From: Candidatus Hydrogenedentota bacterium
Lineage (GTDB): Bacteria > Hydrogenedentota > Hydrogenedentia > Hydrogenedentales > GCA-2746185
Direction: 5' to 3'
NCBI GenBank assembly: GCA_030123645.1
Contig: JASJYE010000001.1
Coordinates: 1-30,197 of the forward strand
Length of the DNA stretch: 30,197 nt
Part shown: one piece after another, positions 1-18,864 of the stretch
Layout: each line of letters starts with the position of its first letter
How positions within the stretch are numbered: position 1 is the stretch's first letter
Notes under the pieces: generated by a model
The model's input: the letters and a program-made list of their open reading frames with translations, nothing else
The model's database searches: none
Told to the model about the DNA's origin: nothing
Position numbers and translations under genes: made by a program

Positions 1-1235
1 TGATGGAAATGCAGGCTCTCGTCCAGGTAGGGATCCTTGAGCGGCACGAGCGGCCACCGGGCGAGCCCCTTGAGGATAACGAGCCCCACGGCGCCAATGG
101 CGCCTACAGTGATGCCGATTTCGGGAATGCCTAAGACGGGGGCGTCGGATGAAATGCTGGGAAATACTTGCAAATAGAGATCCAACCAGCGCCCGAGGAG
201 GACCACCACGGCGACTTTCACCATGAGGTCGTCGCTTCGCTTGACCCCTCTTGGCATAAGAATGATAAACGGCACGAGCCAGTTGAGGACGAGGTTGAAG
301 ACGAAGAGGGGCCCCCACATGCCGCTGACGCGAGTGATGAAATACTCGGTCTCCTCGGGGAGGTTTCCGTACCAAATGAGCAGATACTGGCTGATCCAGA
401 TGTATGCCCAGAAGATGCTGAAACCGAAGAGAAGCTTGCCGAGGTCGTGAAGGTGGTTTTCGTTCACGATGCCGCGCAAGACGCCTTGGCTTCGAAGCCA
501 CACGACGACGATAATGACGCCGGCGAGGGAACTCGTGCAAATGCCGGCAAAGTGGTAGACGCCGAAAATCGTGCTGAACCAGTGGGGCTCGAGGGACATG
601 AGCCAGTCAAAGCTGGACAGCCAGACCGTTAGGGCGAAGAACACCAGGAACGCGGCGGAAAGCGCGACGTTCTTGCGCGTGTGGCTCTGCTTGCCGTCGA
701 TATCTTGCTCGCGCGAATGACGGAGAATAACCGTGGCGAAGGCGATCCAGATGGCCACGTAGACGACGGCCCGGAACAGGAAGAACCCACGGTCCAGCCA
801 CATGGCCTTGAATCCGGTGAAATGGTCTCCCACCTCGCCAAATGCCGGGTAGAGCGAGGGCCGGAAGACGAGGACCAAGCCGATGCCGAGGGCGGCGATG
901 GGCAGCAACCCCGCGAAGGCCTCGGGGATTCTCCGTAATACGACGCCCCAGGCCGCGGTAGTGACATAGAGCGAGGCGACGAGAAAGAGGCCGCCGAGCG
1001 CCAGCCCAATCAGGTAGGTGCTGTTCATGAGCACGCTGCCCCACAGGCGTTGCGGCGCGAGGAAAAGTTCCACCACGAATACCACGGCCCCAATCGCGAC
1101 GAAGGCCTTGTACATGTCGAGCGTGCGTGCCGGCGGACTAAAGTTTCGAATCGAATCGGACGCCAAGCGTCGCGCCACATCGGATTCGTGACGGGCGTCT
1201 TTTCCGTCAAGGCTTTGTAAAGCTGTCTCGCTCAT
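1..1235 (-). CDS. actF: Alternative complex III membrane subunit ActF (3' end just outside window)
   Basis: Absent from the ORF track (no stop in window); translated by hand from ATG 1235, which overlaps the actE stop (ATGA): MSETALQSLD...; open to the window edge (>=411 codons). Contains FDWLMSLEPHWFSTIFG, HDLGKLLFGFSIFWAYIWISQYLLIWYGNLPEET and C-terminal PLKDPYLDESLHFH, typical of ActF; multi-TM. Confidence 0.93.
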   Translation of the reverse strand, partial: MSETALQSLDGKDARHESDVARRLASDSIRNFSPPARTLDMYKAFVAIGAVVFVVELFLAPQRLWGSVLMNSTYLIGLALGGLFLVASLYVTTAAWGVVLRRIPEAFAGLLPIAALGIGLVLVFRPSLYPAFGEVGDHFTGFKAMWLDRGFFLFRAVVYVAIWIAFATVILRHSREQDIDGKQSHTRKNVALSAAFLVFFALTVWLSSFDWLMSLEPHWFSTIFGVYHFAGICTSSLAGVIIVVVWLRSQGVLRGIVNENHLHDLGKLLFGFSIFWAYIWISQYLLIWYGNLPEETEYFITRVSGMWGPLFVFNLVLNWLVPFIILMPRGVKRSDDLMVKVAVVVLLGRWLDLYLQVFPSISSDAPVLGIPEIGITVGAIGAVGLVILKGLARWPLVPLKDPYLDESLHFH

Positions 1236-1888
1236 AATTGACTTTCTTCGCTCCCGGACGCGTTCTGATACGAGGCCGGACCTTCCGGCGCCGTCTCGTT
1301 GGCATTGCGCTCCAGTTTGGCCGCTTCTTTTTCTTGAAGGGACCGAATATGCAGGATAACTTTCCAGCGGTCCTCCGGGGAAACCTGGGCCGCATAGTCG
1401 GGCATGTTTCCCTGACCGTAGGTGATGACATGGAAGATCTGGCCATCCTTCATGTTCAAGCTGTTTTCGGCGAAAAGGGACGGCGGCGGCGGATACCCGC
1501 GTCTCGCCACCGGGCCGTCTCCCCGTCCGCCGGGCCCGTGACAGGGGATGCAGAAGGTGGCATAGACTTTCGCGCCTCTCTGCAAGAAGTCTGCCTCGGC
1601 GGTGAAGAGGTTTTGCAACTCGTTTCCCGCCCGCGCCGCGTCTTCGGGCGTTGCGGCGTAGTGCAGCGGCATGTGGCCCCGCGGAATGGTTCCAGGAATT
1701 GGCGCTTGCAGGGTCTTGCCGTCGGGAAAATGCTCGTTCACCGCGAAGGAATCGTATGGGATGGAGTAGAGCATTCCCGGCAAGAACTCGTAATTGGGCT
1801 CTTCCGTATTGCCTCCGATCATCCAACTCACTACGATGAGAACGACGATGCAGGCCGCCAACATAGGATTAAGAAACGATTTGAGCAT
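1232..1888 (-). CDS. actE: ACIII monohaem cytochrome c subunit ActE
   Basis: Single CIPCH motif, distal Met in GNMP, PIPGTIPRG motif, N-terminal hydrophobic anchor; lies between actD and actF with overlapping stop/start codons. Confidence 0.9.
   Translation of the reverse strand: MLKSFLNPMLAACIVVLIVVSWMIGGNTEEPNYEFLPGMLYSIPYDSFAVNEHFPDGKTLQAPIPGTIPRGHMPLHYAATPEDAARAGNELQNLFTAEADFLQRGAKVYATFCIPCHGPGGRGDGPVARRGYPPPPSLFAENSLNMKDGQIFHVITYGQGNMPDYAAQVSPEDRWKVILHIRSLQEKEAAKLERNANETAPEGPASYQNASGSEESQL
1269..1288 (+). repeat. 20-bp CCGG-N5-CCGG repeat, copy in actE tail
   Basis: TACGAGGCCGGACCTTCCGG, 18/20 to TACGAGACCGGACGTTCCGG. Confidence 0.75.
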
Positions 1889-2415
1889 CAGTCGGTCTCC
1901 ACTTCGCGCTCTTCGATGTGAACTGCGTTAAAGCGTTCGCAAAGCTGTCTTACTTCGCCGGGATCGAAGGTGGCGTCGGATTCTTCGAGCAACAACGCGA
2001 AGCGGTCGTTGGTGATGCCGTCAAAGGGCAGATCGGCCTCTTTGCCCGGCCACAGCCGCGCGCGCGCGAACAGGACAATGACGGTGCCCACGCCCGCGAA
2101 AAGGACGGCGAGTTCGAAAATGACGGGCACAAAAGCCGGAAGCGAATTCCAGGGCTTTCCGCCGACGTTGATGGGCCAGCTAACGGCCGAGGTCCAAAAG
2201 GCGAACCACGTCATGAACGTGGCCCCCGTCAACCCGAGCAGGAAGGCCACGATGGGCAGCCGCGACGTACGGAACCCGACGATGCGCTCCAGGCCGTGGA
2301 TGGCGTAGGGACTGAACACGTCGACGATGGTGAGGCCCTTTTGGCGGGCGGCCCCGACAACGCCGAGGATGTCTTCCTCGTGCTCGTAGACACTCATGAA
2401 TATGCGGCGGTTCAT
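1888..2415 (-). CDS. actD: ACIII subunit ActD (DUF3341)
   Basis: FSPYAIHGL, two TM helices around WPINVGGKP, PAFVPVIFELAVL, terminal D-RF-L motif; position after actC. Confidence 0.92.
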   Translation of the reverse strand: MNRRIFMSVYEHEEDILGVVGAARQKGLTIVDVFSPYAIHGLERIVGFRTSRLPIVAFLLGLTGATFMTWFAFWTSAVSWPINVGGKPWNSLPAFVPVIFELAVLFAGVGTVIVLFARARLWPGKEADLPFDGITNDRFALLLEESDATFDPGEVRQLCERFNAVHIEEREVETD

Positions 2416-2431
2416 GCCTGTGCTCCTTCGG

Positions 2432-3871
2432 TTACGAGACCGGACGTTCCGGCTGGCTGCCTATCGACGCGAGCTCTTCTTCGCCTTTCTCCGGCGTCGC
2501 TGAATCCGCCTTCGGGCGCGGCGGGCGCCCGTAACTCAGAACGCCTTTGAGCTCGGACATGGCGAGGACCGGCAGGAATCGGCAGAACAACAGGAAGGCG
2601 GTAAAAAACAACCCGAACGATCCCATAAGGGTGAGAATCTCGATGATGGTCGGCGAGTAGCCGGCCCAACTCGAGGGCAGGAAATCGCGGTGAAGCGAGG
2701 TCACGATAAGGACGAAACGCTCGAACCACATGCCAATATTGATGACGATTGATATGGCGAAAACGAAGCCAAGGTTGGTGCGCAACTTCTTGAACCAGAA
2801 CAACTGCGGGGAGATGACGTTGCAGGCGATCATGGTCCAGTAGGCCCAGGCAAAGGGCCCCAGTGCGCGGTTCTTGAACACGAAGGCCTCGTAGGGGTTC
2901 CCCGAATACGCCGCGGTAAAGAACTCGGTCAGATACGCCAAACCCACCAGACTGCCCGTCAGGATAATGATTTTACACATGGCTTCGACGTGGCGCACGG
3001 TGAAGTAGTTCTCGAGGGCCATGACCTTGCGTGCGATGAGCATGAGCGTGAGCACCATGGCGAAACCGGAGAAAATGGCCCCGGCGACGAAGTACGGCGG
3101 GAAGATGGTCGTGTGCCAACCAGGAAGGATGGTCGCGGCAAAGTCCATGCTCACGATGGAGTGCACCGACAGGACCAAGGGCGTCGCCAAACCGGCCAGC
3201 ATGAGATAGACGACCTCGTAACGAACCCAAGTGCGGTACGACCCGTTCCATCCGAGGCTGAAGAAGCCGAAGATCTTTCGTCTCAGGCCGCGGGCGCGGT
3301 CGCGGATGGTGGCGAGGTCGGGGATGAGGCCCAGGTACCAGAAAACGAAGCTGATGGTGAAATAGGTCGAGATCGCGAAGGCGTCCCACACCAGAGGCGA
3401 CCGGAAGTTAATCCACAGCGGGCCCCTGAAGTTGGGATAGGGAATGTTGTAGAAGAAGAGCCACCACCGCCCCATGTGGATGAAGGGGAAGAGGGCCGCG
3501 CAGATGACCGCGAACAGGGTCATCGCTTCGGCGGCGCGGTTGATGGAGGTGCGCCAGCGCTGGCGGAAAATGAATAGGACGGCGGAGATGAGGGTGCCCG
3601 CGTGGCCGATCCCGATCCAGAACACGAAGTTGGTGATATCGAAGGCCCAGCCGACGGTTTTGTTGAGGCCCCACGTTCCGATCCCCGTCGCCATCTGATA
3701 GATCACGGCGATAACGCCTATGCCGAGCACGGTGGAAGAGGTTGCAAAGGCCATCCACCATAAGCGAGTGGGTTTCCCCTCAATAATTCCACAGACCTCG
3801 TCGGTCACGTCCGAGAGCGCCTTGTTCCCCAGGATTAGGGGTTCGCGCATGTTGGTATGATGGTCAGGCAT
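2432..3871 (-). CDS. actC: ACIII quinol-binding NrfD/PsrC-family subunit ActC
   Basis: [69 protein letters not shown]; about 10 TM helices. Confidence 0.96.
2433..2452 (+). repeat. 20-bp repeat, copy at actC 3' end
   Basis: TACGAGACCGGACGTTCCGG, identical to 5031-5050 and 5600-5619; encodes PERPVS and part of the TAA stop. Confidence 0.9.
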
Positions 3872-6800
3872 GGTGCTCTGTTCCTTCTCCCTCGCCGGTC
3901 TCCCGAGCCCGATTGCGCACGAGGGTGAGGTAGCCTACGGAAGGCCGTACGTTGAGTTCTTCGAGAACCTTGTAGTGGCGAGGACTCGCGAGAAGTCTTG
4001 CGATCTTAGAGTCGGGATCGTTCATATCGCCCATGACGAGGGCTTGCGCCGGGCAGGACTGTTGACACGCGGGTTGGACGCTTTCGTCCGACACTTTCAC
4101 GCCTTTGCGCCTCGCTTCGAACTTGGCCTCCTGAAGACGCTGGACGCAAAACGAGCACTTCTCCATCACGCCGCGGTCGCGCACGACTACGTCGGGATTC
4201 AGCGCCATGTTCTCCAGGGGATCGCGATTCTTGTTGTAGTTGAACCAGTTGAAGCGCCGCACCTTATACGCGCAGTTGTTCGCGCAGTAGCGCGTGCCCA
4301 CACAGCGGTTGTAGGCCTGCGCGTTCAGGCCTTCTTCCGTATGCACCGTGGCCAGCACCGGGCAAACGTTCTCGCAGGGGGCGTTGTCGCACTGCTGGCA
4401 CATCATGGGCTGGTGAAACACGTCCACGTCGTCGCCTTCCCCGGAGTAGTAACGGTCGATCCGCATCCAATGCATGTCACGGCGGCGGCGGACCTCGTCT
4501 TTGCCCACGACGGGAATGTTGTTCTCGGCCTGGCACGCGATGACACAAGCGCTACAGCCCGTGCACGCGCTGAGATCGACGGCCATGCCCCAGTGATGCC
4601 CCTTGTAGAGGTGATCCTCCGGATAGAGATCCTCGTCAAGGACGAGCGGGTGGAAGCGGCCCGACGACGGGTCTTCCTCGTAGGCGGCCAGTGTCGTTTC
4701 CTGAATAATTTCGCGGCGAAGGCCACCCGCCGGAGCGATATGTTCCGGCACGGTGATAAGGTGATAAGTTTGCGTGCACGCCAGCGGATGTTTCCGGCGC
4801 GTCTTCGCGATCTTGACGCCACTGCGTTCGAATCGCAACGCGCCGTCCTCTAGCGCAAGGAGCGGAGCGGCGTTCGCGCCTACCAGGCCGTCTTTGCCTA
4901 CGCTCGGCCGGGCCTGTATCCACGCCGGGCCGATGTCGGAGAAGCGGCGGGACACCGCGCCGCCGTAACCTAGCGCCACGGACACGACACGGTCGTGTTG
5001 CCCGGGCTGGACGTACACGGGAAGTTCCAATACGAGACCGGACGTTCCGGCGTCGCCGTCGCCGCCGGCGTCGATTCGAATCACGTCTCCTTCGACCACG
5101 CCGAGTTGGTCGGCAGCGGCCACGGAGAGATTCGCGTAATTGTCCCACGTTACCTTGCTGATCGGATCAGGCAGTTCCTGCAGCCACGGGTTGTAGGCGT
5201 GGCGTCCGTCGCCCAGACTGACCTTGGGGTAGAGGACAAGGGTATACGCCGACTCGTCCGATGCGTCGGCGCTGGTGATGAGGCTGACCGCGCTTTCATT
5301 GAAGCTTCGGGCCGGCAGCGGCGCGGACTCGATGGTCGCATATCCGTCGTGAAGCGACTTGTCCCAGAAGGCCACGAACGACGCGCTGCCGCTGCTCGCG
5401 GGATAGACTTCGCGCTCCCAGCGCTGCCGGAGCGCGTCGTAGGCCGATTGCGGCGCGCCTGACCACGTATTGAGGCTCTCAATCAACGCACGCGAATTGT
5501 TAAGCGGGCGGATCACGGGCTGCATAAGGCTGACGCGGCCATGGACCGCTTCCGCGTCGCCCCAGGATTCGAGGAAGTTATGGTCGGGGCACACGTACTT
5601 ACGAGACCGGACGTTCCGGGCGCGGGCGCTCGTTTCGTCGGGCCGCTCCGCAAAACTCACGACGAGGCCAACGCGGTCCAGGGCCTCGCCCATGGCCGCG
5701 CCGCCCGGAAGGTCGTAAACCGGATTGGCGCCGGCCACAAAGACGGCGTCGATCTCTCCTGCCTGGATTTCCTCAAGAAACTCGGCCAACTCGGCATCGT
5801 TTCCTTGTTTCTGATAGGAGGGTCGCTCGATGTCGACGGTTTCTCCGTAGTTTTCCAATAGATGATTCAGGTAGTTGCACAAGATCTGATGCTGAACATC
5901 TTGACTGCCGCAAATGACCAGACTGCGGCCTTTGGCACGCCAGAGTTCCTCGGCCAGCTCCTTGAGGACCACATCCGATACCGGAGGCTCTTCGAATCCC
6001 GAATACCAAACCGGTGGTTCCGGTGCCTCGACGCCGGTTCCCGCCATGCGGGCCACGCGCGCGGCCAAGTGGCTGAGGACCAGCCCTAGTTCCTCCGGCG
6101 CGATGCGGTAACGGTTGTCGGCGTTGGAGCCTGTGAGAGTCATGCGAGACTCGAATTGCACGTGCCGGGAGAAATGACCGGAACCACCGCTTTGGTATAT
6201 GGAATCGCCATCGAGAACGCGGCCCGCGCGGTAGCCTGCGGTATACCCGACGGGGTCGATCCAAGTTCCAAGGAAATCGGCATCGAAGCCGGCAATCACC
6301 TGGGCCTTTGAGAAGTCATAGTGCGGCAAGACGCGCAGACCGTGGGTCTTCTCGTGGGCATCGAGAATCGCCGAGGAGGACAATGCGTCGTATGTGATGT
6401 GCTTTGCGTCCGAAAAGGTATCGAGGAAGCGCGCGATGGCCGCCCGGGTCGTCGGACTGACCACGGTGCCGGTCACGAAACGCACGGAACCGCCCGTGCT
6501 GCGCAGCCCTTCAAGCGACGCCGTCAGGGATTGGTCGATTTCCTCCCAGGTTGCGTCTAGCAAAGCGGAGGTTCCGGCGTCGCCGACTTTAGGGCCCGCG
6601 TACCGGTGGCTGTCGTACAGACCCAGGAGCGCGGCCTGTCCTTTCGCGCACAGGCCGCCTTTGGAAAGGGGATGGCCCGGATTGCCCTCGAGCTTGATAG
6701 GCCGTCCGTCGCGGCTCTTTATCAGCGCACCGCAGGCCGACTCGCACGCGCCGCAAACCGAGGCGTAATAGACGGCGCGTCCAGCCACCACGCCCTCGGG

Positions 6801-7031
6801 CTGAATAATATGCGGAAACGCGTTCCGAATCGGCGCCCTGCTGCAGCCGGCCGCGGCCACGGCGCCCGCGATGGTGAAACCCGCCGCTTTGAGAAAGCTT
6901 CGACGGTCGACGTGACCAGGCGGCTCTTCCATCCATTGCGAAAGGTCGTGCTCATCCGAGGTGGGCGCGCTCGCGCCATCCTTGGGTGGCCGCGAACTCT
7001 GCCAATACTGCTTTGTAGATTCCTTCGACAT
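3864..7031 (-). CDS. actB: ACIII subunit ActB (molybdopterin-oxidoreductase-like domain fused to NrfC-like Fe-S domain)
   Basis: Tat signal DRRSFLK followed by lipobox AAGC; [16 protein letters not shown]; C-terminal Fe-S motifs [40 protein letters not shown]...CQQSCP; 1055 aa. Confidence 0.95.
5031..5050 (+). repeat. 20-bp repeat, copy in actB
   Basis: TACGAGACCGGACGTTCCGG; read as AGTSGLV. Confidence 0.9.
5600..5619 (+). repeat. 20-bp repeat, copy in actB
   Basis: TACGAGACCGGACGTTCCGG; read as ARNVRSRK. Confidence 0.9.
6004..6023 (+). repeat. 20-bp repeat variant, copy in actB
   Basis: TACCAAACCGGTGGTTCCGG (16/20 to the main variant); exact reverse complement of 30170-30189; read as PEPPVWY. 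Confidence 0.85.
6178..6197 (-). repeat. 20-bp repeat variant, inverted copy in actB
   Basis: CCGGAACCACCGCTTTGGTA, 19/20 to the reverse complement of 6004-6023; read as YQSGGSG. Confidence 0.85.
6558..6577 (+). repeat. 20-bp repeat variant, copy in actB
   Basis: TAGCAAAGCGGAGGTTCCGG, 18/20 to the reverse complement of the 6178 copy; read as AGTSALL. Confidence 0.7.
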
Positions 7032-7054
7032 TCTTCGCCGATGCTCCTATATCG

Positions 7055-7738: not shown

Positions 7739-7746
7739 GACAACCC

Positions 7747-9360
7747 TCAGCAACTAATTTCCGCGTTCTTGCGGGCGTAGTACCACCAGTTGAGCGCGAG
7801 ACACGTCAGGTAGTAGACAGCGAATCCGTAGAGCGCGTACTGCGGCGTACCGGCTTCGATTTGCGTAGCAAAGATCTTGGGAATCAGAAAAGCGCCGTAA
7901 GCCGCCACCGCCGAGGTCCACCCAAGAACCGGCCCGGCCTGCTTACTGTCGAAAATAACGGCGATCATGCGGAAGGTCGAACCGTTCCCGATTCCCGTCG
8001 TGGCGAAGAGCAAAATGAACAGCCCAAGGAAGGGCAGAAAATACTTCTCAGGGGTTAGCGACACGTTCGCCAAGGCCACGACATATCCGCACGCCACCGC
8101 GGCGCCGATCATGACGATCGTGTCCCAATGGGTCACGCGCGCCCCCCCAAGCTTGTCGGAAAGTAAGCCGCCCAGAGGCCGGATGGCCGCTCCCATGGCC
8201 GCACCCAGGAAGGCGAACTTGAGGATGTCCGGCGCGTTGGGATTAACGATGGCTTCGGCGAGTTCCAGGCCGTTTTCGTCCACGCGGATGTAACCGAAGA
8301 CGTCCTTCAGGAGTTTCGGAAACGCGTTGGAGAACCCGATGAACGATCCGAAGGTCATCACATAGAGATAGGTCATGATCCAGTTGTGCTTGTTGCCGAA
8401 GATGGCGAACTGGCCGACGAGGTTGTCTTTCGTCTCTTTCGGCGTCAGGAAACGCATGAAGAACAGCGTGCAACAAATCGCGATGATGAGGATCACGAAT
8501 ATCTTTATCAACTCGGGGAATCCGCCCCACGGCACTATCAGCAAGGCGATGGCGATGGTGGCGCCCATGTAGCCCAGCAGTTCCAGCCACAGGTACTTGC
8601 CCACGGCCACGGACGTGGGCCCGCACTTGTGCTGGGGCAGGTTGTTCATGAACATCCACGCCAGGACGCAGAAGAACGCTAGGACCGGCACCCAGATAAG
8701 CCCCGCGTTGTGAATGTAGATTTCTTTGTCCCCCAGCGACCGGGGGTCGCCGCCGAAGATCCCGACGGTGATGATGAAGGGGATTGTCAATTGCATCACG
8801 GCGACGCCGAGATTCCCCAGGCCCGCGTTCAGACCGAGCGAGAGCCCCTGAACGCGTTTGGGGAAAAAGAAGCTGATGTTGGACATGGAGGACGCGAAGG
8901 CGCCGCCGCCAATGCCGGACAAGGCCGCCAGCATGATGAACACCAGAAACGGCGTGTCGGGATTCCTCAGCGCCAGCCCCGTCCCCAACGCGGGCAGAAT
9001 CAGCAGCAGCGTCGTCATGCCCTTGACATTGCGCCCTCCGCAGATGGCGATCATGAAGGAATTCGGGATGCGCGTCGTAGCGCCCGCGAGCCCCGCAACG
9101 GCCGGCAGGGTATAAAGCAACGCCTTGTACGCCGCTCCCGTGATCGCTTCGCCGCCGTTCCCGAATGAGAATGCGAACAAACTGCCGTCCACGTCATGGA
9201 GGCCCTGCATCAGGCCGACGATTACGCCCCAATAAATCCAGACGGCAAAGGCAAGCAGCAGGTTCGGGATGGAAATCCAGAGGTTACGGTACGCCACCGA
9301 TTTCCCTGTTTCTTCCCAGAACTGTTCGTCCTCTGGGTCCCACCGTTCAGGTGCTTTCAT
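7747..9360 (-). CDS. narK: NarK2-type nitrate/nitrite MFS transporter
   Basis: FWEETGKSVAYRNLWISIPNLLLAFAVW; nitrate signatures GIGGGAFASSM and GIGNGSTF; conserved Args (TTRIP, AIRPLGG). Confidence 0.92.
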   Translation of the reverse strand: MKAPERWDPEDEQFWEETGKSVAYRNLWISIPNLLLAFAVWIYWGVIVGLMQGLHDVDGSLFAFSFGNGGEAITGAAYKALLYTLPAVAGLAGATTRIPNSFMIAICGGRNVKGMTTLLLILPALGTGLALRNPDTPFLVFIMLAALSGIGGGAFASSMSNISFFFPKRVQGLSLGLNAGLGNLGVAVMQLTIPFIITVGIFGGDPRSLGDKEIYIHNAGLIWVPVLAFFCVLAWMFMNNLPQHKCGPTSVAVGKYLWLELLGYMGATIAIALLIVPWGGFPELIKIFVILIIAICCTLFFMRFLTPKETKDNLVGQFAIFGNKHNWIMTYLYVMTFGSFIGFSNAFPKLLKDVFGYIRVDENGLELAEAIVNPNAPDILKFAFLGAAMGAAIRPLGGLLSDKLGGARVTHWDTIVMIGAAVACGYVVALANVSLTPEKYFLPFLGLFILLFATTGIGNGSTFRMIAVIFDSKQAGPVLGWTSAVAAYGAFLIPKIFATQIEAGTPQYALYGFAVYYLTCLALNWWYYARKNAEISC

Positions 9361-9443
9361 CGTGTTTTCCGCTCTTCGGTTTTACTTCGATCCACATTAG
9401 ACTGCTTACACGCCCACATTTCCCGCGATTTTTCTCATTCCCT

Positions 9444-10946: not shown

Positions 10947-11040
10947 ATGTGACGACCTCCAACCGTCGTCCTGCCGCCTGGGTCTTCGGCCCGATCCGTC
11001 CCCCTACAACTCCTTCAGCGCCGCGCCCTGCTACGCCGCG

Positions 11041-11715
11041 TCACTCGCCATACCAACGCACGACTTGCGGCTTACGCCAGAGGTAGGGGTTGGGGATGAC
11101 TAAGATATGTACGAGCCGCGTAAACGGGAAGAAACCGACAACGAGAAACGCGTTGATGATGTGCAACTTTATCAGCATAGGCATGCCCACGATGTAGCTG
11201 ATGTCGGGGTTGAAAATGAACAAGGAGCGCAAGTACGGCGTGAGCGAAGCCGCGAACCACGACGAGCCCCAGGGGTGAATCACGGCGATGGCAATACCGG
11301 TCACGACCTGGAAAACCAACAGGGCGTACAAGATAACGTCCGCCGGCGTGGACACTACGCGCAATTTCGAGTTCGTGAACCGGCGCACGATCATCGCGAT
11401 CAACCCCACGAGGGTCAGCACGGCGCAGGCCAGCCCGGTCACTTCGAGAAGGTAGAGGCGCATAGGGGCGCTGTTCCACGACAAGATGGCCCGCGGCATG
11501 AGAAAGGCCAACAGATGCCCGGCGAACACCGCGAGTATGCCGTAGTGAAAGGGCACCATGGCCCAGAAATGACGCTTGTTCTCGAGCAATTGCGTCGACA
11601 GACTCGAAAAGGTGAAGCTCTGAGAGCGGTAGCGCTGAATGCTCACGAGCAGCAGTGTGAACACCGCCACGTAGGGAAGCGCCGCAAACATCAATATGTC
11701 GAAATAGCTACTCAT
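11041..11715 (-). CDS. narI: Respiratory nitrate reductase gamma subunit (dihaem cytochrome b)
   Basis: Four haem-b His ligands in FHYGILAVFAGH and KLHI...PFTRLVH; five TM helices; position after narJ. Confidence 0.95.
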   Translation of the reverse strand: MSSYFDILMFAALPYVAVFTLLLVSIQRYRSQSFTFSSLSTQLLENKRHFWAMVPFHYGILAVFAGHLLAFLMPRAILSWNSAPMRLYLLEVTGLACAVLTLVGLIAMIVRRFTNSKLRVVSTPADVILYALLVFQVVTGIAIAVIHPWGSSWFAASLTPYLRSLFIFNPDISYIVGMPMLIKLHIINAFLVVGFFPFTRLVHILVIPNPYLWRKPQVVRWYGE

Positions 11716-12298
11716 GGTTGGCCTCCTTCAGAGCGAATACGCCCGAATAATCCGGTGGGTCCTCCTCGGCGGCCTCTTCGATGTATCGGCCGTACCGTGC
11801 TTCGAGCAAGTTCGCGATTCCCTGAATGAGGGGGCGGTAGGGGTTGCCCTTCTTGACCGCGCCCAGGATCTTGTCCACGGCGGGAACCAGACAACAGACG
11901 GCGAAACTGATTGCGTCCTCTTCGGACATGCGCCCGAGCACGCGCAACACGTTTGTGAGGTGATCGGGCAATTCCGTCGTTTCCGGAATTTTGAGACGCC
12001 GCATCTCGTTCCGTATCTTCACCATGTACAGCCCCCGGTTATACTCCTCGCCGAAGAGTTGCCAACCCGTATCGAGACTGCAAAGAGGATTGAGGTCGAA
12101 GGTTTGGATGTAACGCTCTTCCAGCTCGCTCAGCGACTTCCCCTCGATGCTGGCCATGAAGGCCTCGGCCTGTTCCACGACGGCCGGGGCCTCGACGGCG
12201 GCCATGTCCCGGTAGCGGAGCACCCGCTCGGCGTAGTCGCGTTCTGGGTAGGTCAATACGGCGGCCAGCGCCTCGCACAGTGTGTCGAAATCGCGCAT
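11708..12298 (-). CDS. narJ: Nitrate reductase Mo-cofactor assembly chaperone (delta subunit)
   Basis: Y-QTFD, GEEYNRG, ELPDHL motifs; between narH and narI with overlapping codons. Confidence 0.92.
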   Translation of the reverse strand: MRDFDTLCEALAAVLTYPERDYAERVLRYRDMAAVEAPAVVEQAEAFMASIEGKSLSELEERYIQTFDLNPLCSLDTGWQLFGEEYNRGLYMVKIRNEMRRLKIPETTELPDHLTNVLRVLGRMSEEDAISFAVCCLVPAVDKILGAVKKGNPYRPLIQGIANLLEARYGRYIEEAAEEDPPDYSGVFALKEANHE

Positions 12299-13788
12299 TA
12301 CAGTCCCCTCCTGGGCCCCGAGAGGAACCCGAAGCCCGTGCCCTGTTTGTGCTCCATGGGATCTTTCAGCGCCTCGATGGCCTCCTCACGATGGGCCGGC
12401 GGAATGACGAAGCGTTGATCGAAGGTACAAAGCGACGTGAGTTCGTAAATCGCCTGCGCCTCTTTGACGGTGCAATCGGCCTCTTTGAGCATTCGCTCTG
12501 CCGTTTCCAGATCGACGTCGCCTACCGTGACCGCCCGGCGATACCAACGCACGGACTTCTCCTTGCGCAAAGCGTAGAGCACCTTGCCTTCTTGGCCGCC
12601 GCCAAGCAGATTGCCCAAGAATTTCATCGGCACGCGCGCCTCTTCGATATCGTGGAAGAGGTTTTCGCTAATACTGTCCAGTCCCCCGGCTTTCTGCTGC
12701 GCCATGACCGGCGCCATGGGCGGCACATAAAACAGCATCGGAAGCGTGCGGTATTCGATATGCGGCGGCAGCGCCAGCTTCCATACCTTGACGTATTGAT
12801 AGACGGGCGACTCTTGGGCGGACTTGATGGTCGATTCCGCGATGCCGTTCTTCAGCGCATTCTCGATGACATGGGAATCATTCGGATCGAGAATCATGGA
12901 ACGCTGACCGTCGATAAGTTCCTCTTGCGGTAGATTGCTGACCTCTTCGATACGATCGGCGTCGTAGAGCAAGACGCCCAAATAGCGGATGCGGCCGACG
13001 CAGGAGTGGAAGCAGGCGGGAGCCTGACCCGTTTCAATACGGGGGAAGCATAGAATGCATTTCTCCGACTTCCCCGTGAACCAGTTGAAATATACCTTCT
13101 TATAGGGACAGGCCGCGATGCAGGAACGCCAGGCCCGGCAGCGCTTTTGGTCCACGAGGACGATGCCGTCTTCGCCGCGCTTATACAGTGCCCCCGAAGG
13201 ACATGACGCCACGCAGGCCGGGTTCATGCAATGGTTGCAGATCCGGGGGAAGTAGAAAAAGACCAGTTGTTCGATGGACATTAATTGAAGGCGCTGTTCC
13301 TTTGTGAGTCCTTCAAGGTTTGGATCGTTTGCCGCATAGATCGGCGAGCCGCCAAGGTCATCGTCCCAGTTGGGCCCCGATTCGATGTCGATGTACTCGC
13401 CCGTGACCATGGAGATCGGCTTCGCCGTGGGTTGATCGGGGCCTTCGGGCGCGTTAAAGAGATTCTGATAATCGTAGGTCCACGGTTCGTAGTAGTCGTC
13501 CATGCTGGGCATGTTCGGATTGTGGAAAATGTTCGGGATGATCCGCCCCTTGCCCGTGGATTTCAGGCGGATCTTGCCATTGTGCTTTTCCCATCCGCCT
13601 TTGAACTTGTCCTGGTCTTCCCACAGAGCGGGGAAGCCGGTCCCCGGCTTCGTTTCCACGTTGTTCCACCACATGTAATCGGTGCCTTTGCGGTCCGTCC
13701 AGATGTTCTTGCAGGCAATGCTACAGGTATGGCACCCGATGCATTTGTCAAGATGGAAGACCATGGAGATTTGAGAGCGCACATTCAT
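12298..13788 (-). CDS. narH: Respiratory nitrate reductase beta (Fe-S) subunit
   Basis: LDKCIGCHTCSIACK, WWNNVETKPG, CNHCMNPACVASCPSG, CRAWRSCIAACPYKK, EKCILCFPR...CFHSCVGRIR. Confidence 0.97.
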   Translation of the reverse strand: MNVRSQISMVFHLDKCIGCHTCSIACKNIWTDRKGTDYMWWNNVETKPGTGFPALWEDQDKFKGGWEKHNGKIRLKSTGKGRIIPNIFHNPNMPSMDDYYEPWTYDYQNLFNAPEGPDQPTAKPISMVTGEYIDIESGPNWDDDLGGSPIYAANDPNLEGLTKEQRLQLMSIEQLVFFYFPRICNHCMNPACVASCPSGALYKRGEDGIVLVDQKRCRAWRSCIAACPYKKVYFNWFTGKSEKCILCFPRIETGQAPACFHSCVGRIRYLGVLLYDADRIEEVSNLPQEELIDGQRSMILDPNDSHVIENALKNGIAESTIKSAQESPVYQYVKVWKLALPPHIEYRTLPMLFYVPPMAPVMAQQKAGGLDSISENLFHDIEEARVPMKFLGNLLGGGQEGKVLYALRKEKSVRWYRRAVTVGDVDLETAERMLKEADCTVKEAQAIYELTSLCTFDQRFVIPPAHREEAIEALKDPMEHKQGTGFGFLSGPRRGL

Positions 13789-13806
13789 GGGAAGCGATCC
13801 TTCTCG

Positions 13807-16800
13807 TTACCACTTAAGTTCGGGTAATTTGCGTACCATAATATGGGTGTCGCGGTTGCAGCCGATGGGACCCCAGTAATTGAAGTGATAGGTAAACTGT
13901 CCGTAACCGCCGGCCAGGAAATTGGGTTTGAGACGCGTCCGCGTCAAGCTGTTGTGGCCCCCCGCCCTGCGATTGTTGCGCAAGGGGGACTTGGGCACCG
14001 AGATGGTTCGCTCGGGCGAATGGTACTGAATGCACACCCCGGGAGGAATGCGCGCACTGACGACCGAGCGCGTCACCACCACACCGTGGTCGTTGTAGAT
14101 CTCTACCCAGTCGTTGTCGTTGACGCCGATATCGGCCGCGTCCTTGACGTTCATCCAAAGCGGTTCGACCCCGCGCGACAAGGTCGTCATCCGCTGGTTG
14201 TCGCCATAGGTCGAGTGGATGTGCCACTTTCCGTGAGGCGTCAAATAATTCAGCGTCTTCGTTGGCCCCTCTTCCTTGCTGAACTGCATGTCCGCATATT
14301 GGGTGGGCAACGGCTTAGGTTTGAAGGTGGGGAGATGTTCGCCAAATTGCAGATACATGGGATGATCAAGATAGAAATGCTGGCGCCCGGTGAGCGTTCG
14401 CCAAGGCACGAGCATCTCGACGTTGTAGGTGAAAGGGGAATAGGGACGGCCCTTTTCAATGAGGGCCGACCACATCGGACTGTTGATAAAGCGCTGGGGC
14501 CCGTTCTGCAGGCCCTTGTAAGTGGCGCGGACGGACCGGCTGTTCTCGGCCAGTTGCGCGAGCGGCAGACCGACTTTCTCCTCGATATTCTTGTACGAAC
14601 GGTAAGCCAACTCACCGTTGGTGACACTTGCGAATTCCAGGATGATGTTGCAGACGTCGGCGTCTTCCTTCAGCGAGAGGTAGCGATTATCATCCCATTC
14701 TTGAGTGGGAAGACTCTTCAGGGACTCTTCGTACAAATCGGCCACTTCGTAATGTGTGCCGTGCGCCCCCAGGCCCTTCTCCGAAACCAAGGGCCCCCAG
14801 GAAATGAACTGCTTATACAGATTCTTATAGTCGCGTTCGACGATATTCAGGTTGGGCATGGTCTTGCCCGGAATCGCCTCGCACTCGCCGGCCTGCCAAT
14901 CTTGCAGACTCGGCTGCGAAATCTCGGCGGGCGTGTCGTGGGCCAGGGGCGTGGCCACAAGGTCTTTGACCTTCTCCGGGAAATGGGTCTCGGCCAACTC
15001 GGAGAACTTCTTGGCGATGGCCTGAAAGATCTGCCAGTCGCTCTTCGATTCCCAACACGGCGGCACTGCCTCGGACAGCGGATGAATAAAACTGTGCAAG
15101 TCGGTCGAGTTCAGATCCGCCTTCTCGTACCACGTCGCCGCGGGCAATACGATATCGGAATACAACGCCGAGGTGTCCATCCTGAAATTGAGATCGACGA
15201 CCAGATCCATCTTCCCTTCAGGGGCGTTCTTGTGCCACTCGATCGTCTTGATGGTGTCCTCCGCCATGTCTTTGGCGATCATGTTGGTATGGGTGCCCAG
15301 GTAATGCTTGAGGAAGTATTCATGCCCCTTCGAGCTGGACATCAGGGCGTTGCCACGCCAGATGTACCACACCCGCGGCCAATTCTCCTCCGCGTCCGGA
15401 TCCTCGACGGAAAAGCGCGTCTCTCCAGATTTCAATTGGCCGACGACGTTCTGTATCACCTCCTCGTCGTTCTGAGCGCCGTTGGCTTCGGCTTCGGCGA
15501 CGATATCGATGGGGTTCTTGTTGAACTGCGGATAGAAGGGCATCCATCCGGAACGCACGGAGCGGGATTGCACCTCCATCGTGTGCCCCTTTGCCAGCGT
15601 GTCGGGCGGCTGATGGCGCGGCACCGTGTGATAATCCGTGAAGCTCTTCTCGTAACGCCACTGGTCCGTGTGCACATAGTGCCAACTGGGTGCGTTCTGC
15701 AACCGAGACGGCGGATACCAATCCTTGGCCATGGCCACGCTGCCCCAGGATTCCGCCGGCGCCAGTTTCTCCTGCCCGACGTAGTGGGCGAGCCCGCCGC
15801 CGTTTACGCCGACGCAGCCGCAGAACATCAGCGCGTTCATGCCGGCGCGGTACATCAGATTGCCGTGATACCAGTGGTTGATGCCGGCCCCGATGATGAT
15901 GATGCATTTGCCCTTGGTCAGTTCGGCGGTCTTGCCCCATTCGCGGGCAAAGCGGATGACCATGTCGCGGCTCATGCCCGTGTATTTCTCCGACCATGCG
16001 GGCGTGTACGGCGTATCGTCGTCATAGCTTTCGGGATAGGCGCCCTCGAGCCCGCGCACCACGCCGAACTGAGCCATCAAGAGGTCGTAGACCGTGGCCA
16101 CAAGAACCGTTTCGCCCGAACTCGTCTTGATCTTCTTCACGGGGACGCCGCGGTTTAGTTCGGTACCCTCTCCAAAATCGTCGAAATTGACCTGGACCAC
16201 GCAATCGTTTTCGTTCAGAAATGTCAGCGCCGGCGCAATCTTGCTGCCGTCCAGACCGTCTTCCAGTTTCAGGTTCCACTTGCCTTTTTCTTCGCCCCAG
16301 CGGAATCCGCCGCTCCCCATGGGCATTTTGGGCTTCTTCTCGTCTTCGTCCCACATCAGGAACTTCCAGTCGCCGTTCTCGATGCCGGTGTAGCCGTCGA
16401 GCCGGTTCGCACGAAGCAACTGCTCCGGACGATACACGCCTTTTTCGTCGGTTTCTTTCACCTCAACCAGCAGCGGGGAATCCGTGTAGCGTTTCACGTA
16501 ATCGATGAAATAGGGCACCTGGCGCTCGTGATGAAATTCGGTGAGCAGCACGTGATTGACCGCCATCCACCACGCGCCATCCTGCCCCGCGTTCAGCGAG
16601 ACCCACTCATCGGCATACTTGGCCACCTGGTTGAAGTCGGGCGCGAAAACCCACATCTTCGTTCCGTTGTGGCGTGCTTCCGCCGCGAAATGGCAATCCG
16701 GGGTGCGCGTCATATTGAGATTGGATCCCACGACCGCCAGCAACTTGGCGTTGTACCAATCCGCGGACTCGTGAACGTCGGTCTGCTCGCCCCAGAGTTC

Positions 16801-17454
16801 CGGCGAGGCGGTGGGCAAATCGCAGTACCAATCATAGAACGAGAGCGAGACGCCTCCCATGAGCTGCAGCATCCGCGAGCCGGCGGCGTAGCTAATCATC
16901 GACATGGCTGGAATCGGCGAGAATCCCGCAATACGGTCCGGCCCATGTTTCTTGATGGTATGAATATTCGCCGCCGCCATGATTTCAAGGACCGTGTCCC
17001 AACTGGCCCGGCGGAAGCCGCCCTTGCCGCGCGCCTTCTGCCAACGCTTTCGGGCCTCGGGGTTCTCCACCAGGGAGGTCCACGCGGCAACGGGGTCTTC
17101 ATGCTCCGCGCGTGCCTTTCGCCACAAGTCCAGCATGGCGCCCCGGATGTAGGGGTACTTCACGCGCAACGGGCTGTAGAGATACCAGGAATAGGAGATG
17201 CCGCGCTGGCAACCCCGGGGCTCGTAGGGCGGGAGGCCGGCCTCGAGTTCGGGATAATCGAGTTGCTGCATCTCCCACGTGACGATCCCGTCCTTCACAT
17301 AGATGGCCCAACTGCAGCCGCCCGTGCAGTTTACGCCGTGAGTGCTGCGCACTATTTTGTCGTGTTGCCAGCGATTCCGGTAGAACTCCTCCCAGCCTCT
17401 GAGCTTGGGATCGCATTCGTCTTTTATCCAGCTTATGGCGTTCTTAAATTTCAT
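13807..17454 (-). CDS. narG: Respiratory nitrate reductase alpha subunit (Mo-bisMGD, cytoplasmic NarG/NxrA clade)
   Basis: [13 protein letters not shown] (His/Cys FS0 motif), [10 protein letters not shown] (Asp Mo ligand), [24 protein letters not shown]; no Tat signal. ATG 17454 has GAGG upstream; GTG 17466 is the alternative start. Confidence 0.96.
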
Positions 17455-17462
17455 CGTTCGCC

Positions 17463-18335
17463 TCACAGTTTTTCGCTTTCAACTAAGGGCCGCCGTACGG
17501 CGAGGAAACGCCCCTTCCAAACAAAATCAAAGAACATCAGCGCCAACGCCGCCCCGCCAGCGCCCAGCAGCGCAAAGGTCAGTTGGGCTTGCGACTTTGC
17601 GGGCTTCCCCGCCTGGGCGCGATCCTCGAAAAGCGCCACCAGCGCGTGGATTTCGTCCGATTCCATCGCAGCAGCCTTAAACACAGAATTCATCGTGGGC
17701 GTGGCCGGCGCCATGAGCCATGAACTCAATACCGTGCGGCCCTGGAGCCGTTCGTAGACCAGGGTCAAATCGCCCCGTTCCGGATCGAGATTGCCGCCCC
17801 CCAAGCCCCCAAGGCCCGAAACCGAATGGCACGAATAGCACGCGGGCCCGCCGTTCTTCAGTTTTCGCGATCCCTTGAAAATCGCCAGGCCCCGCGCGAC
17901 GTCGGCGGCCGTAAAGGGCTCGTTCGAGATTTGAACGCCCTTGAATTGAGATTCCTCCAAGGCCGATTCCGCTTCGATGAGATCCAGCAGGTAGTCCGCC
18001 CGTTCGGGCGTTATGCCGGGTGGGATGGGCATCACAACCCCCCGGGCCTCGTCGAGCAGTTGAAGCGCGTACGGATCGCCTGCATCCATCTTGGCCTGCG
18101 GATTCAGTATGTACGACTTCAGCCATTCCCGATCCCTGCGCCCGGTGACGTCCTTGAGGTCCGGACCTGTCAATCGCCCGCCGCCGATGGTGTGACAGCT
18201 CGCACAATTCTGTTGGAAGTAGACAGCGGTTTCCTGGGCATTCGCCGGCATAGCGGCCAGCAGAACCATGACCGCCAAGCCTGCTCCGGCCCGCCCAAAC
18301 GATGTTCGCCGCGCCTTTTCACTCCATTTGTTCAT
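17463..18335 (-). CDS. narC: Periplasmic dihaem cytochrome c with C-terminal membrane anchor (Thermus NarC-like)
   Basis: Signal peptide ending AMPANA, CASCH and CYSCH, candidate distal Mets (VVMP, PTM), C-terminal TM; immediately upstream of narG. ATG 18335 chosen from the AGAGGA RBS; 18377 is the alternative. The symbol rests on architecture and position, not a search. Confidence 0.78.
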
Positions 18336-18390
18336 CGTCCCGATTCCTCTTGACATGATTCTGGTCGTAAATGGCATCCTTTGCCCATGT

Positions 18391-18810
18391 CTATTTCTTC
18401 TTCAGCGGTTTCTTCTTAGCAATCGACGCAATCGTCGTCGTTGTCAAGAAATCTATGTAGGCCAAGCGCACACGGCGGTATTTCACATGCGCGGAGCAAG
18501 CCTCCTCGTCCGAGCAATCATGGTCTTCACCAAGCAGGCATTTCGTCTCCGATTTCACGTTTTCAAACAAGCTCACCACGTCAACGATACAAATCTCACG
18601 GGCAGGTTTGCCCAATCGATATCCGCCGTGTGAGCCCCGAACGGCTTCCACCAATCCCGAGTTTCGCAAGACCAGCATCAGTTTGGACAAATAATTCGCC
18701 GGAATTCGGCACTGGGTCGACAATGTCTGGCCGAAAATCATCTCCTCGCCGGGAAGTTGCGCCAGCTTCACCAAGGCGCGAAGGGCATACTCCGATGTGG
18801 CGGTGAGCAT
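18391..18810 (-). CDS. Rrf2-family transcriptional regulator with Cys3His Fe-S ligand set
   Basis: SEYALRAL, IPANYLSKLMLVLRNSGLVEAVRGSHGGYRL, C-X7-C-X5-C-X2-H (CLLGEDHDCSDEEACSAH). ATG 18810 has GGAG upstream. Confidence 0.92.
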   Translation of the reverse strand: MLTATSEYALRALVKLAQLPGEEMIFGQTLSTQCRIPANYLSKLMLVLRNSGLVEAVRGSHGGYRLGKPAREICIVDVVSLFENVKSETKCLLGEDHDCSDEEACSAHVKYRRVRLAYIDFLTTTTIASIAKKKPLKKK

Positions 18811-18824: not shown

Positions 18825-18838
18825 TGTAGATGTCTACA
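18825..18838. promoter_or_regulatory. Palindromic candidate operator TGTAGA-N2-TCTACA
   Basis: Perfect 6-2-6 inverted repeat overlapping the -10 element and predicted start site, just upstream of the rrf2 RBS. Confidence 0.55.
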
Positions 18839-18864
18839 ATAGCACATGCCAGCACCACTGTCAA
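18836..18864 (-). promoter_or_regulatory. Sigma70-type promoter for the rrf2-nar-act unit
   Basis: On the minus strand: TTGACA (18864-18859), 17-nt spacer, TATTGT (18841-18836) preceded by TGn (extended -10); about 25 nt upstream of the rrf2 ATG. Confidence 0.7.

Follow-up and report, generated by a model that had tools for sequence, protein, structure and literature searches.

Gene content of the putative nar-act operon

The 30,197-bp window analyzed here is the complete contig JASJYE010000001.1 from a metagenome-assembled genome (MAG) of a Candidatus Hydrogenedentota bacterium (GCA_030123645.1; 83% complete, 531 contigs, 59% GC). From position 18810 to the contig end, 14 co-oriented genes on its minus strand encode an Rrf2 regulator, the cytochrome NarC, the nitrate reductase NarGHJI, two transporters (NarK1 and NarK2), and the six subunits of an alternative complex III (ACIII), ActABCDEF. 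The possible cooperation of the nitrate reductase and the ACIII encoded by this putative nar-act operon is the subject of the present analysis. The genes were identified from a listing of open reading frames (ORFs) together with Pfam, NCBIfam, and PDB searches of the window proteins (Table 1).

The residues and domains found assign the nitrate reductase to the canonical, cytoplasm-facing NarGHJI type with a two-b-heme NarI, accompanied by a Thermus-type NarC. No twin-arginine motif was seen by eye in the 30 N-terminal residues of NarG. When numbered as E. coli NarI by alignment to chain C of 3EGW/1Q16, the window NarI has all four heme ligands (H57, H67, H185, and H203) and carries Arg86 at the place of the E. 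coli Q-site Lys86. The four His ligands are retained in 24/24 nar-linked NarI proteins. NarC is distantly homologous to a cytochrome c whose gene immediately precedes narG on Thermus thermophilus plasmids, a weak but specific match (27% identity over 208 aa, E 3e-5 by tblastn).

Judged from the profile and structure matches, the act genes encode a complete ActABCDEF, which is a variant form of ACIII with the FS0 cluster rather than the textbook form. ActB, ActC, and ActF match the solved ACIII structures 6BTM, 6F0K, 6LOD, and 8K9E with E values of about 1e-54 to 1e-184. The stop codon of actF lies one codon past the contig end, and the complete 412-aa gene is present on contig L086, which is 99.3% identical. 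ActB departs from the solved structures, whose MopB-like domain is cofactor-free, with neither FS0 nor molybdenum-bis-pyranopterin guanine dinucleotide (Mo-bisPGD): its FS0 motif, C-x2-C-x3-C-x27-C, is intact at residues 93-128 (window 6648-6755). Mo-bisPGD has likely been lost from the window ActB, a view with indirect support. The likeness of ActB to FdhA, PsrA, ArrA, and NapA is confined to the first ~150 residues, comprising the twin-arginine translocation (Tat) signal and the FS0 domain, while the remainder resembles only ActB; PF00384 was not detected in the window ActB by the Pfam search. An interpretation of ActB as a true molybdoenzyme was rejected as the principal one because this similarity ends so early.

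The original prediction had described 14 consecutive minus-strand genes, many of them overlapping, with a largest gap of 94 bp and only 8 bp between narK2 and actA. The ORF listing and the profile searches bear this out: neighboring genes overlap by 1-8 nt at seven junctions, the widest intergenic gaps are 94 bp (narI-narK1) and 83 bp (narK1-narK2), and the 8 nt from the TGA of narK2 to the ATG of actA contain a Shine-Dalgarno-like GAGGG. The statement that there is no obvious terminator also agrees with our hairpin scan, in which terminator-like sites in the window were at chance level (22 observed, 19.3 expected) and none lay in the intergenic gaps of the operon. The promoter that had been placed at the top of the operon corresponds to a candidate upstream of the Rrf2 gene, which is a pattern match only. 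As for an independent promoter before actA, no promoter-like site was found at the narK2-actA junction, where the 8-bp gap is too short for one; two weak matches (9/12) inside narK1 and narK2 are at chance level.

The Rrf2 protein carries the iron-sulfur (Fe-S) ligand pattern C-x7-C-x5-C-x2-H, and its gene also heads the equivalent operon at eight other loci (L005, L006, L013, L028, L050, L075, G055, and L119). It is probably a sensor of the redox or nitric oxide type that controls the operon.

Table 1. Promoter candidate and genes of the nar-act operon in the window
Feature	Position	Strand	Evidence and properties
Sigma-70-like promoter candidate, TTGACA-17-TATTGT, TG-extended -10	18836..18864	-	Consensus scan, 10/12 matches; pattern match only; just upstream of the Rrf2 ATG
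Rrf2-family transcription regulator, 139 aa	18391..18810	-	PF02082, E 4e-30; TIGR00738 above cut-off; under the cut-offs for NsrR, IscR, and RirA
NarC, periplasmic diheme cytochrome c with signal peptide and C-terminal membrane anchor	17463..18377	-	CxxCH at residues 58 and 180; transmembrane (TM) helix 268-286; PF00034
NarG	13807..17466	-	PF00384, PF01568; 74-86% identity to NarG of other nar-act loci
NarH, iron-sulfur subunit	12298..13788	-	PF13247, PF14711
NarJ, assembly chaperone	11708..12298	-	PF02613, E 2.5e-4, just below cut-off; between narH and narI; 36-53% identity to NarJ of related loci
NarI, diheme cytochrome b membrane subunit	11041..11715	-	PF02665, E 7e-60; full-length alignment to E. 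coli NarI, 3EGW/1Q16 chain C
NarK1-type nitrate/nitrite transporter, major facilitator superfamily (MFS)	9444..10946	-	PF07690; TIGR00886, 186 bits, below cut-off; 60-75% identity to the same-position gene in L018, L026, L027, and G055
NarK2-type MFS nitrate/nitrite transporter	7747..9360	-	NarU/NarK NCBIfam models, 262-275 bits, below cut-offs
ActA, pentaheme cytochrome c with N-terminal TM helix	7055..7738	-	Five CxxCH; TM 5-23; PF14522
ActB, Tat-signal (RRSFLK) MopB-like domain fused to 4-cluster ferredoxin domain	3864..7031	-	6BTM_B, E 2e-181; 6F0K_B, E 1e-171; nearly full length; PF04879
ActC, NrfD-like quinol-site membrane subunit	2432..3871	-	6F0K_C, E 1e-184; 6BTM_C, E 2e-182
ActD	1888..2415	-	PF11821, E 8e-49
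ActE, monoheme cytochrome c with N-terminal anchor	1232..1888	-	One CxxCH at residue 113; TM 6-24; PF13442
ActF, second NrfD-like membrane subunit	1..1235 (ORF 3-1235)	-	6BTM_F, E 2e-56; 6F0K_F, E 6e-54; 411/412 codons in the window

Conservation of the nar-act junction

An ActB query was compared with one genome per species, and the best 80 ActB loci were searched by tblastn with all 14 window proteins; the nar-act carriers in this survey are all MAGs. In 24 of the 80 loci, nar(C)GHJI is directly upstream of actA, and the same arrangement was found in G041, G055, and L119. Overall, nar genes immediately precede actA in ~28 loci of at least five phyla. The synteny that the original prediction had proposed to survey is thus not unique to one genome. 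Its hosts belong to Acidobacteriota (Terriglobia, Vicinamibacterales, Blastocatellia, Geothrix, and Thermoanaerobaculia), Planctomycetota, Verrucomicrobiota, Binatota, and Zixibacteria, and an Elusimicrobiota contig holds a partial locus that ends after narK-actA. The narC gene is present in all 11 nar-act loci that have enough flank. Some loci (e.g., L005, L013, and L016) have narI directly adjacent to actA, and the order narI-narK-actA is shared by the window, L018, L026, L027, and L047. Since actF is followed by narK, a SLAC1/TehA-type channel, moeA, and a porin in five loci (L005, L006, L016, L028, and L050), the act genes are embedded among nar accessory genes.

Two further arrangements were seen around these loci. 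In the Verrucomicrobiia MAG of L016 (18370-21985), actF is followed by a 700-aa MFS ORF with NarK2-like and then NarK1-like segments, detected as two adjacent tblastn matches, and by a gene for an alginate-export-type outer-membrane porin. In three Acidobacteriaceae-type genomes, a NirK gene is located ~10 kb downstream of the nar-linked actD on the same strand (G002:C3:398308-399195, G001:C96:5935-6859, and G016:C35:59705-60505), extending a cluster of narCGHJI-actABCDEF-channel-narK-moeA-multiheme cytochrome.

The original prediction had allowed for an oxidase among the genes after actF, which lie beyond the window, and this possibility was not borne out in the near relatives. Contig L086 has no same-strand ORF within 464 bp after actF, and the only match of its tail elsewhere in the assembly of the window is a repeat. 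In a sister species with 87% nucleotide identity (L116-L118), a convergent GH94-type gene of 2863 aa begins 80 bp after actF; this gene is absent from the assembly of the window. The genes after actF are unrelated in all three carriers from the same family or order (G041, G049, and G055), and no conserved oxidase cluster was found downstream of actF in 19 nar-act loci, where the next gene is often on the opposite strand. An oxidase following actF was rejected on these grounds.

The nar-type ACIII was found in only 3 of 40 genomes that share the family or order of the window genome, and one of these three has the exact architecture of the window. Because so few relatives carry it and the genes after actF are unrelated among them, the module is patchy and was probably acquired laterally, with flanks that are not conserved. 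The relative L119 (620-kb contig) has the identical 14-gene layout, preceded by three sulfatase genes and a transposase fragment. Sulfatase-rich flanks and the best hits point only tentatively to a Planctomycetota (Pirellulales-like) origin of the window genome. This fragment, of the rve_3 integrase/transposase type, lies directly upstream of the Rrf2 gene (L119 4464-4808) and hints at mobility of the module.

A dedicated, FS0-bearing ACIII lineage

ACIII paralogues were counted by their ActD copies in 20 nar-act genomes, and at least two copies were present in 17 of them. In 14 of these genomes, the other ACIII copy has a COX1 gene 4-6 kb downstream, whereas the nar-linked copy has none. An unrooted ActB tree (60 rows, LG+G4, SH-aLRT, quick search) separated the two kinds of copies. 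A 30-row clade (SH-aLRT 99) contains 20 of the 24 nar-linked copies, whose hosts belong to different phyla. Geothrix copies attach to this clade with SH-aLRT 83, and L028, from Blastocatellia, is placed outside it. A separate clade, also with SH-aLRT 99, comprises the oxidase-linked paralogues from these genomes and includes the second copy of the window genome (contig C378). ActB identity is 45-60% across phyla within the nar group, compared with 31-44% to paralogues of the same genome.

The four-Cys FS0 motif is present in 24/24 nar-linked ActB proteins and in every other member of the nar clade, and it is absent from 18 of 19 oxidase-linked ActB proteins. The sole exception is L104, a deep-branching third copy in a Binatia genome. 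Because this deep-branching copy also has it, FS0 looks like an ancestral feature of ActB rather than a new catalytic one. The correlation of distances in Mantel tests was r = 0.84 between NarH and ActB, compared with 0.83 between NarH and NarI and 0.74 between ActB and ActC. As subunits of one complex correlate no more strongly than NarH and ActB do, the two halves of the module, nar and act, have by this measure travelled together.

The second ACIII-like cluster of the window genome (contig C378; L003 2888-16252) has the unusual gene order actC, actD, actF, actA, and actB. It continues with a 'bd-like' CydA homologue, several cytochromes c, and a protein combining a cytochrome c domain with an EB_dh (heme b) domain, and it contains no heme-copper oxidase. 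Its ActB groups with the oxidase-linked ACIII and is without FS0.

NarI::ActA fusion proteins

At two loci in or beside the nar-linked clade, narGHJ is missing but actA is still immediately preceded by genes for a NarC-like cytochrome and a NarI-family protein. In the Gemmataceae MAG of L015, NarI and ActA are joined: in a 433-aa in-frame ORF, residues 11-203 form a NarI domain (PF02665), which is followed by a TM helix and a pentaheme ActA domain. As the L015 ActB is nested within the nar-linked clade, the loss of narGHJ in Gemmataceae looks secondary. In a large protein collection, at least 96 protein clusters (90% identity) from many independent contigs share the NarI::ActA architecture, with identities down to 55%. 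Three long contigs show one seven-gene operon encoding a NarC-like cytochrome, NarI::ActA, ActB with FS0, ActC, ActD, ActE, and ActF, and neither narGHJ nor an oxidase was found within 10 kb of the operon on these contigs. The C terminus of NarI is in the cytoplasm in the E. coli structure. The fusion is topologically coherent because NarI ends in the cytoplasm and the anchor helix of ActA returns the chain to the periplasm before the heme domain.

The heme ligands were compared in 93 full-length NarI::ActA proteins with the E. coli numbering used above. The ligands of heme bD are kept almost without exception (H67 in 93/93, H185 in 92/93), as is the Q-site Arg86 (93/93), while those of heme bP are lost (H57 kept in 0/93, H203 in 7/93). 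Heme bP is the heme that passes electrons to NarH. Since the bP ligands were lost together with NarGH while the bD ligands and the Q site were kept and joined to ActA, the NarI-type cytochrome seems to be a working partner of ACIII, with the contact on the periplasmic heme bD side. These fusions suggest, in the manner of Rosetta-stone proteins, that NarC/NarI cytochromes and ACIII belong to one assembly. No earlier description of the NarI::ActA family or of its selective loss of heme bP ligands was found in the searchable literature.

An unfused NarI-like protein of Myxococcus sp. CA023 has the same ligand pattern as the fusions, with the bD ligands only. In this cultured myxobacterium (L037 5950-9874), genes for a diheme cytochrome c peroxidase, a NarC-like cytochrome c, and a NarI-like cytochrome b precede actA to actF, and narGHJ is lacking at the locus. 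The strain would be a tractable model for the accessory cytochromes of ACIII.

Possible electron acceptors

Acceptor enzymes were surveyed in 24 nar-act genomes, with the proviso that absences in MAGs are weak evidence. NirS (cd1) was found in none of them, NirK in three (each time in the same extended cluster as nar-act), NrfA in seven, and clade-II NosZ in seven; nine genomes, including a 95%-complete relative, had none of the four. The invariant partners of the nar-linked ACIII lineage are only NarC and NarI, usually with NarGHJ in addition.

In the assembled 83% of the window genome, we found no COX1-family protein (heme-copper oxidase or nitric oxide reductase), NirS, NirK-type copper protein, or NrfA. 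The only relative of cytochrome bd is the 'bd-like' gene next to the second ACIII, and relatives of the same family carry ACIII-caa3 clusters. Either the window organism is an unusual anaerobe or its genes for heme-copper oxidases or N-oxide reductases were not assembled.

Proposed coupling of nitrate reductase and ACIII

We suggest that the operon specifies one module for nitrate respiration that unites NarC/NarI and ACIII in a single electron-transfer assembly, and we assign this interpretation a probability of about 0.55. The Rrf2-controlled operon would produce the NarC-NarG-NarH-NarI nitrate reductase with the help of the NarJ chaperone, two NarK transporters, and a complete ACIII. NarC, with two c hemes, and NarI, with its b hemes, would most likely reside in one membrane assembly with ACIII, and the periplasmic network of c hemes (five in ActA, one in ActE, and two in NarC) would be wired to heme bD of NarI. 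Such an assembly would have two quinol-oxidizing sites, in ActC and at the Q site of NarI, and two sinks, namely cytoplasmic NarGH reached via heme bP and periplasmic acceptors that depend on cytochrome c.

Two flows of electrons can be envisaged, which need not exclude each other. When nitrate is present, electrons from quinol oxidized at ActC would pass through the Fe-S chain to the hemes of ActA and NarC, on to heme bD and heme bP of NarI, and finally to NarH and NarG. This route, which has an evident energetic rationale, would keep the charge separation of the Nar loop and add proton translocation by ACIII; proton translocation has been reported for ACIII (PMC7439408). When nitrate is scarce, quinol oxidized at ActC and at the NarI Q site would deliver electrons through NarC and ActE to periplasmic acceptors, a role for which there is genetic evidence in the case of Thermus NarC (PMC7694296). 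By its gene content, the narGHJ-less fusion operon would permit only this second flow.

The confidence that these proposals deserve is uneven. That Nar and ACIII are functionally linked appears highly probable, and this part of the original prediction stands together with the operon and its nitrate-respiration context: the synteny, the dedicated ACIII clade, the co-divergence, the lack of an oxidase, and the fusions all favor it. For a physical complex of the two in the window organism, we consider the arguments evenly balanced; the indirect evidence for it consists of the NarI::ActA fusions and the interaction of NarC with NarI in Thermus. The predicted direction, from quinol through ACIII and NarC to NarI and NarGH, is opposite to that of the precedents; a flow from ACIII into Nar is put forward as a somewhat doubtful proposal.

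Several observations weigh against a single assembly or this direction. Because the window NarI keeps all four heme ligands and the Q-site Arg, Nar can probably take its electrons straight from quinol, and ACIII would be unneeded for nitrate reduction as such. With the potentials of E. coli NarI, a transfer from high-potential c hemes to heme bD would be locally uphill, and we know of no precedent for electrons entering heme bD of NarI from c hemes. In Thermus NarC and in the nitrite oxidoreductase (NXR) of Nitrobacter, electrons move from NarI out to cytochrome c (PMC7694296). The fusions sit in operons without narGHJ, so that they show a NarI-type domain with ACIII and not the whole NarGHI with ACIII. 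The location of nirK in the extended nar-act cluster of three genomes fits an ACIII that serves as complex III for periplasmic reductases. The Mantel correlation between NarH and ActB is inflated by the shared ancestry of the loci, and the gene absences in the window genome are weak evidence in a MAG that is 83% complete and split into 531 contigs. Finally, co-transcription of narK2 and actA is deduced from their spacing only, and, as far as sequence can tell, a promoter inside narK2 could still serve the act genes.

A bolder version of the proposed assembly can also be formulated, which we regard as tentative and, on balance, unlikely. The NarI-type cytochrome b and NarC would be genuine subunits of a hybrid 'b-c' ACIII that docks to NarGH via heme bD as a nitrate 'respirasome'. 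Oxidation of quinol at ActC would then drive nitrate reduction across the membrane, with an H+/e- ratio above that of the classical NarGHI loop. If this were true, ACIII would have an FS0-bearing anaerobic form, which may be ancestral, and the H+/e- ratio of nitrate respiration would be raised.

The strongest rival is that the two complexes are co-regulated but separate. ACIII would then be a quinol:cytochrome c oxidoreductase for periplasmic enzymes such as NirK, cNor, NosZ, peroxidases, or the propeller-heme proteins encoded nearby, and NarGHI would be fed by quinol via NarI. The view that ACIII can take the place of bc1 in denitrification is accepted (PMC9270275), and the canonical NarI, competent at the Q site by its residues, would suit this arrangement. 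It is also favored by nirK in the extended cluster of G001, G002, and G016, by the cytochrome-rich operon that adjoins the nar-act operon in the window, and by the cytochrome c peroxidase gene upstream of the Myxococcus NarC/NarI/ACIII genes. However, no periplasmic N-oxide reductase co-occurs consistently with the module, 9 of the 24 genomes being without any, and NrfA and clade-II NosZ are usually served by quinol modules of their own. Separate complexes would also leave unexplained why the nar-linked ACIII co-diverges with Nar and why, after the loss of narGHJ, NarC and NarI stay with ACIII and NarI fuses to ActA. We consider separate complexes rather unlikely, while giving them more weight than any other rival.

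It could also be proposed that the system operates in reverse, with the NarG-type enzyme acting as a Nitrobacter-like nitrite oxidoreductase whose electrons leave via NarI and NarC to cytochrome c, and with ACIII reversed so as to carry them from cytochrome c to quinone. The nxr clusters of Nitrobacter do resemble narCGHJI, with a cytochrome c upstream (PMC7694296), the second ACIII of the window genome has a Nitrospira-like 'bd-like' CydA homologue beside it, and a 2023 study of MAGs could not give such enzymes a direction (PMC10732223). This proposal is very improbable, however, considering that the hosts (Acidobacteriota, Geothrix, Verrucomicrobiota, and Planctomycetota) are not known nitrite oxidizers, that the Fe-S Rrf2 regulator, the two NarK genes, and moeA fit a nitrate-respiration regulon, and that the assembled 83% of the window genome yielded no heme-copper oxidase to take the electrons.

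Just as little probability remains for ActB of the nar clade as a true catalytic subunit, in which FS0 would feed a MopB-like active site and the act genes would encode a new periplasmic reductase, for example of nitrite. This would give a reason for the strict conservation of the four-Cys motif in the nar-linked clade; weak or faint matches to the Molybdopterin and Molydop_binding families of Pfam occur on relatives, and an NrfAH-like nitrite reductase was indeed proposed by PMC10732223. However, the act subunits match the chains of solved ACIII, the likeness to real molybdoenzymes and the Pfam evidence fail in the window ActB as described above, and FS0 is found in the oxidase-linked L104 as well. 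Mere adjacency, in which chance or a mobile element would have placed two independent, functionally unlinked respiratory gene sets side by side, is hardly credible and already contradicted by the comparative data, for although a transposase fragment lies just upstream of the L119 module and only 3 of 40 relatives from the order of this genome carry the module, the junction is kept in ~28 loci of at least five phyla, the ACIII clade is a dedicated one, the nar and act parts co-diverge, the act genes are sandwiched between nar genes in several genomes, and NarI::ActA fusions exist.

Comparison with known systems

Although its parts are already known, a dedicated ACIII that is equipped with cytochromes b and c, bears FS0, and is wired to Nar is uncharacterized. 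The closest arrangement on the nar side is narCGHJIKT of Thermus thermophilus (L110), which belongs to the nitrate-respiration conjugative element and encodes a heterotetrameric NarCGHI. As in the window, narC, narG, narH, narJ, and narI are followed by genes for two MFS nitrate/nitrite transporters, and NarC of both organisms is a membrane-anchored periplasmic diheme cytochrome c. However, no act genes follow narT in Thermus, and its regulators are DnrS/DnrT and DrpAB instead of Rrf2. Two-hybrid assays have shown an interaction of Thermus NarC with NarI, and NarC relays electrons to Nir and Nor (PMC7694296). It is said to replace a repressed complex III, whereas the window operon carries a complex III analogue of its own. 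The same review calls NarC 'absent in mesophiles' (PMC7694296), whereas the nar-act module is widespread in mesophilic phyla.

On the act side, the oxidase-linked ACIII has been described from Flavobacterium johnsoniae (6BTM, a supercomplex with aa3) and Rhodothermus marinus (6F0K), and related structures are available from Roseiflexus (6LOD) and Chloroflexus (8K9E). These complexes have the same ActA-ActF subunits and the same cofactor motifs as that of the window, with five hemes in ActA and one in ActE. The difference lies in the partner, which is a caa3/aa3 oxidase or a photosynthetic chain in the known complexes and the nar genes in the window. The nar-linked ACIII further differs from the oxidase-linked one in its separate ActB clade, the retention of FS0, NarC/NarI as accessory cytochromes, and, in one sub-lineage, the joining of NarI to ActA.

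A link of NarC or NarI with ACIII, or of actABCDEF with nitrate, was found in only one report in the searchable literature (Suarez et al. 2023, PMC10732223). The Planctomycetota MAG clusters described there, in 13 instances, combine nar with '5MHC / mbd-4Fe4S / nrfD / actD / ccoP / ccoII', which is evidently the arrangement of the window. The six act-type genes were left unidentified as ACIII and interpreted either as a new nitrite reductase resembling NrfAH or as an electron-transport complex of a generic kind; oxidase genes were present downstream in five cases, and the report contains no phylogeny, FS0 observation, or NarI::ActA fusions.

More distant parallels exist in other groups. The sulfate reducers have Qrc (QrcABCD), which shares the architecture of a multiheme cytochrome with MopB-like, Fe-S, and NrfD components with the act genes. 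The window ActA and ActB have NCBIfam matches to QrcA, QrcB, and QrcC that are far below the Qrc cut-offs. However, Qrc is without ActD, ActE, and ActF and is a cytochrome c3:menaquinone reductase. In the haloarchaeal pNar with NarB/NarC, a nitrate reductase is genetically coupled to a complex-III-like, quinol-oxidizing module of Rieske protein and cytochrome b. The haloarchaeal NarG is exported by the Tat system, faces outward, and works without NarI, whereas the window NarG is of the cytoplasmic type with a canonical NarI and is coupled to ACIII. The 'ACIII-like' complex of Ferrigenium was rejected as the same system, as it is a different, three-subunit one.

ACIII is generally treated as a partner of oxygen reductases or photosynthetic chains, and the textbook case of a self-sufficient redox loop driven by quinol is NarGHI. 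It has been stated in a survey that ActB acts 'exclusively in aerobic respiration', and ACIII is widely regarded as an aerobic invention (PMC10100899). A widespread and laterally mobile module in which the two complexes are hard-wired would change both views. The module suggests that the route of nitrate respiration is more energy-efficient or branched in phyla that are abundant in soil, sediment, and groundwater (Acidobacteriota, Planctomycetota, Verrucomicrobiota, and Binatota), and it bears on how their nitrate reduction is read from metagenomes. The retained FS0 cluster and the accessory cytochrome b also offer a handle on the evolution of ACIII.

Neighboring genes and repeat elements

On the plus strand of the window, a six-gene operon (20710-29937) adjoins the nar-act operon. 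Two of its products are beta-propeller proteins of 604 and 1122 aa that carry CCP/MauG-like and cytochrome c domains; the others are a diheme cytochrome c, a pair of proteins with the FGE-sulfatase fold, and one with a RidA/L-PSP domain. The products could be a periplasmic acceptor of electrons from cytochrome c. The operon is not conserved beside nar-act in the relative L119.

The act genes also contain copies of a 21-nt palindromic element resembling repetitive extragenic palindromic (REP) sequences, with the core ACCGGACGTTCCGG. Copies lie in frame within actB, at the 3' end of both actC and actE, and in the spacer that follows actF. The positions of this element in the window are 1268-1288, 2432-2452, 5030-5050, 5599-5619, 6003-6023, 6177-6205, 6564-6577, and 30170-30183, and it also occurs at 3874-3907 of L086. 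The core is present, with up to 2 mismatches, in ~217 copies genome-wide. Because only one copy occurs in the act genes of the sister species (87% identity), these insertions look recent and appear to be tolerated in coding sequence.

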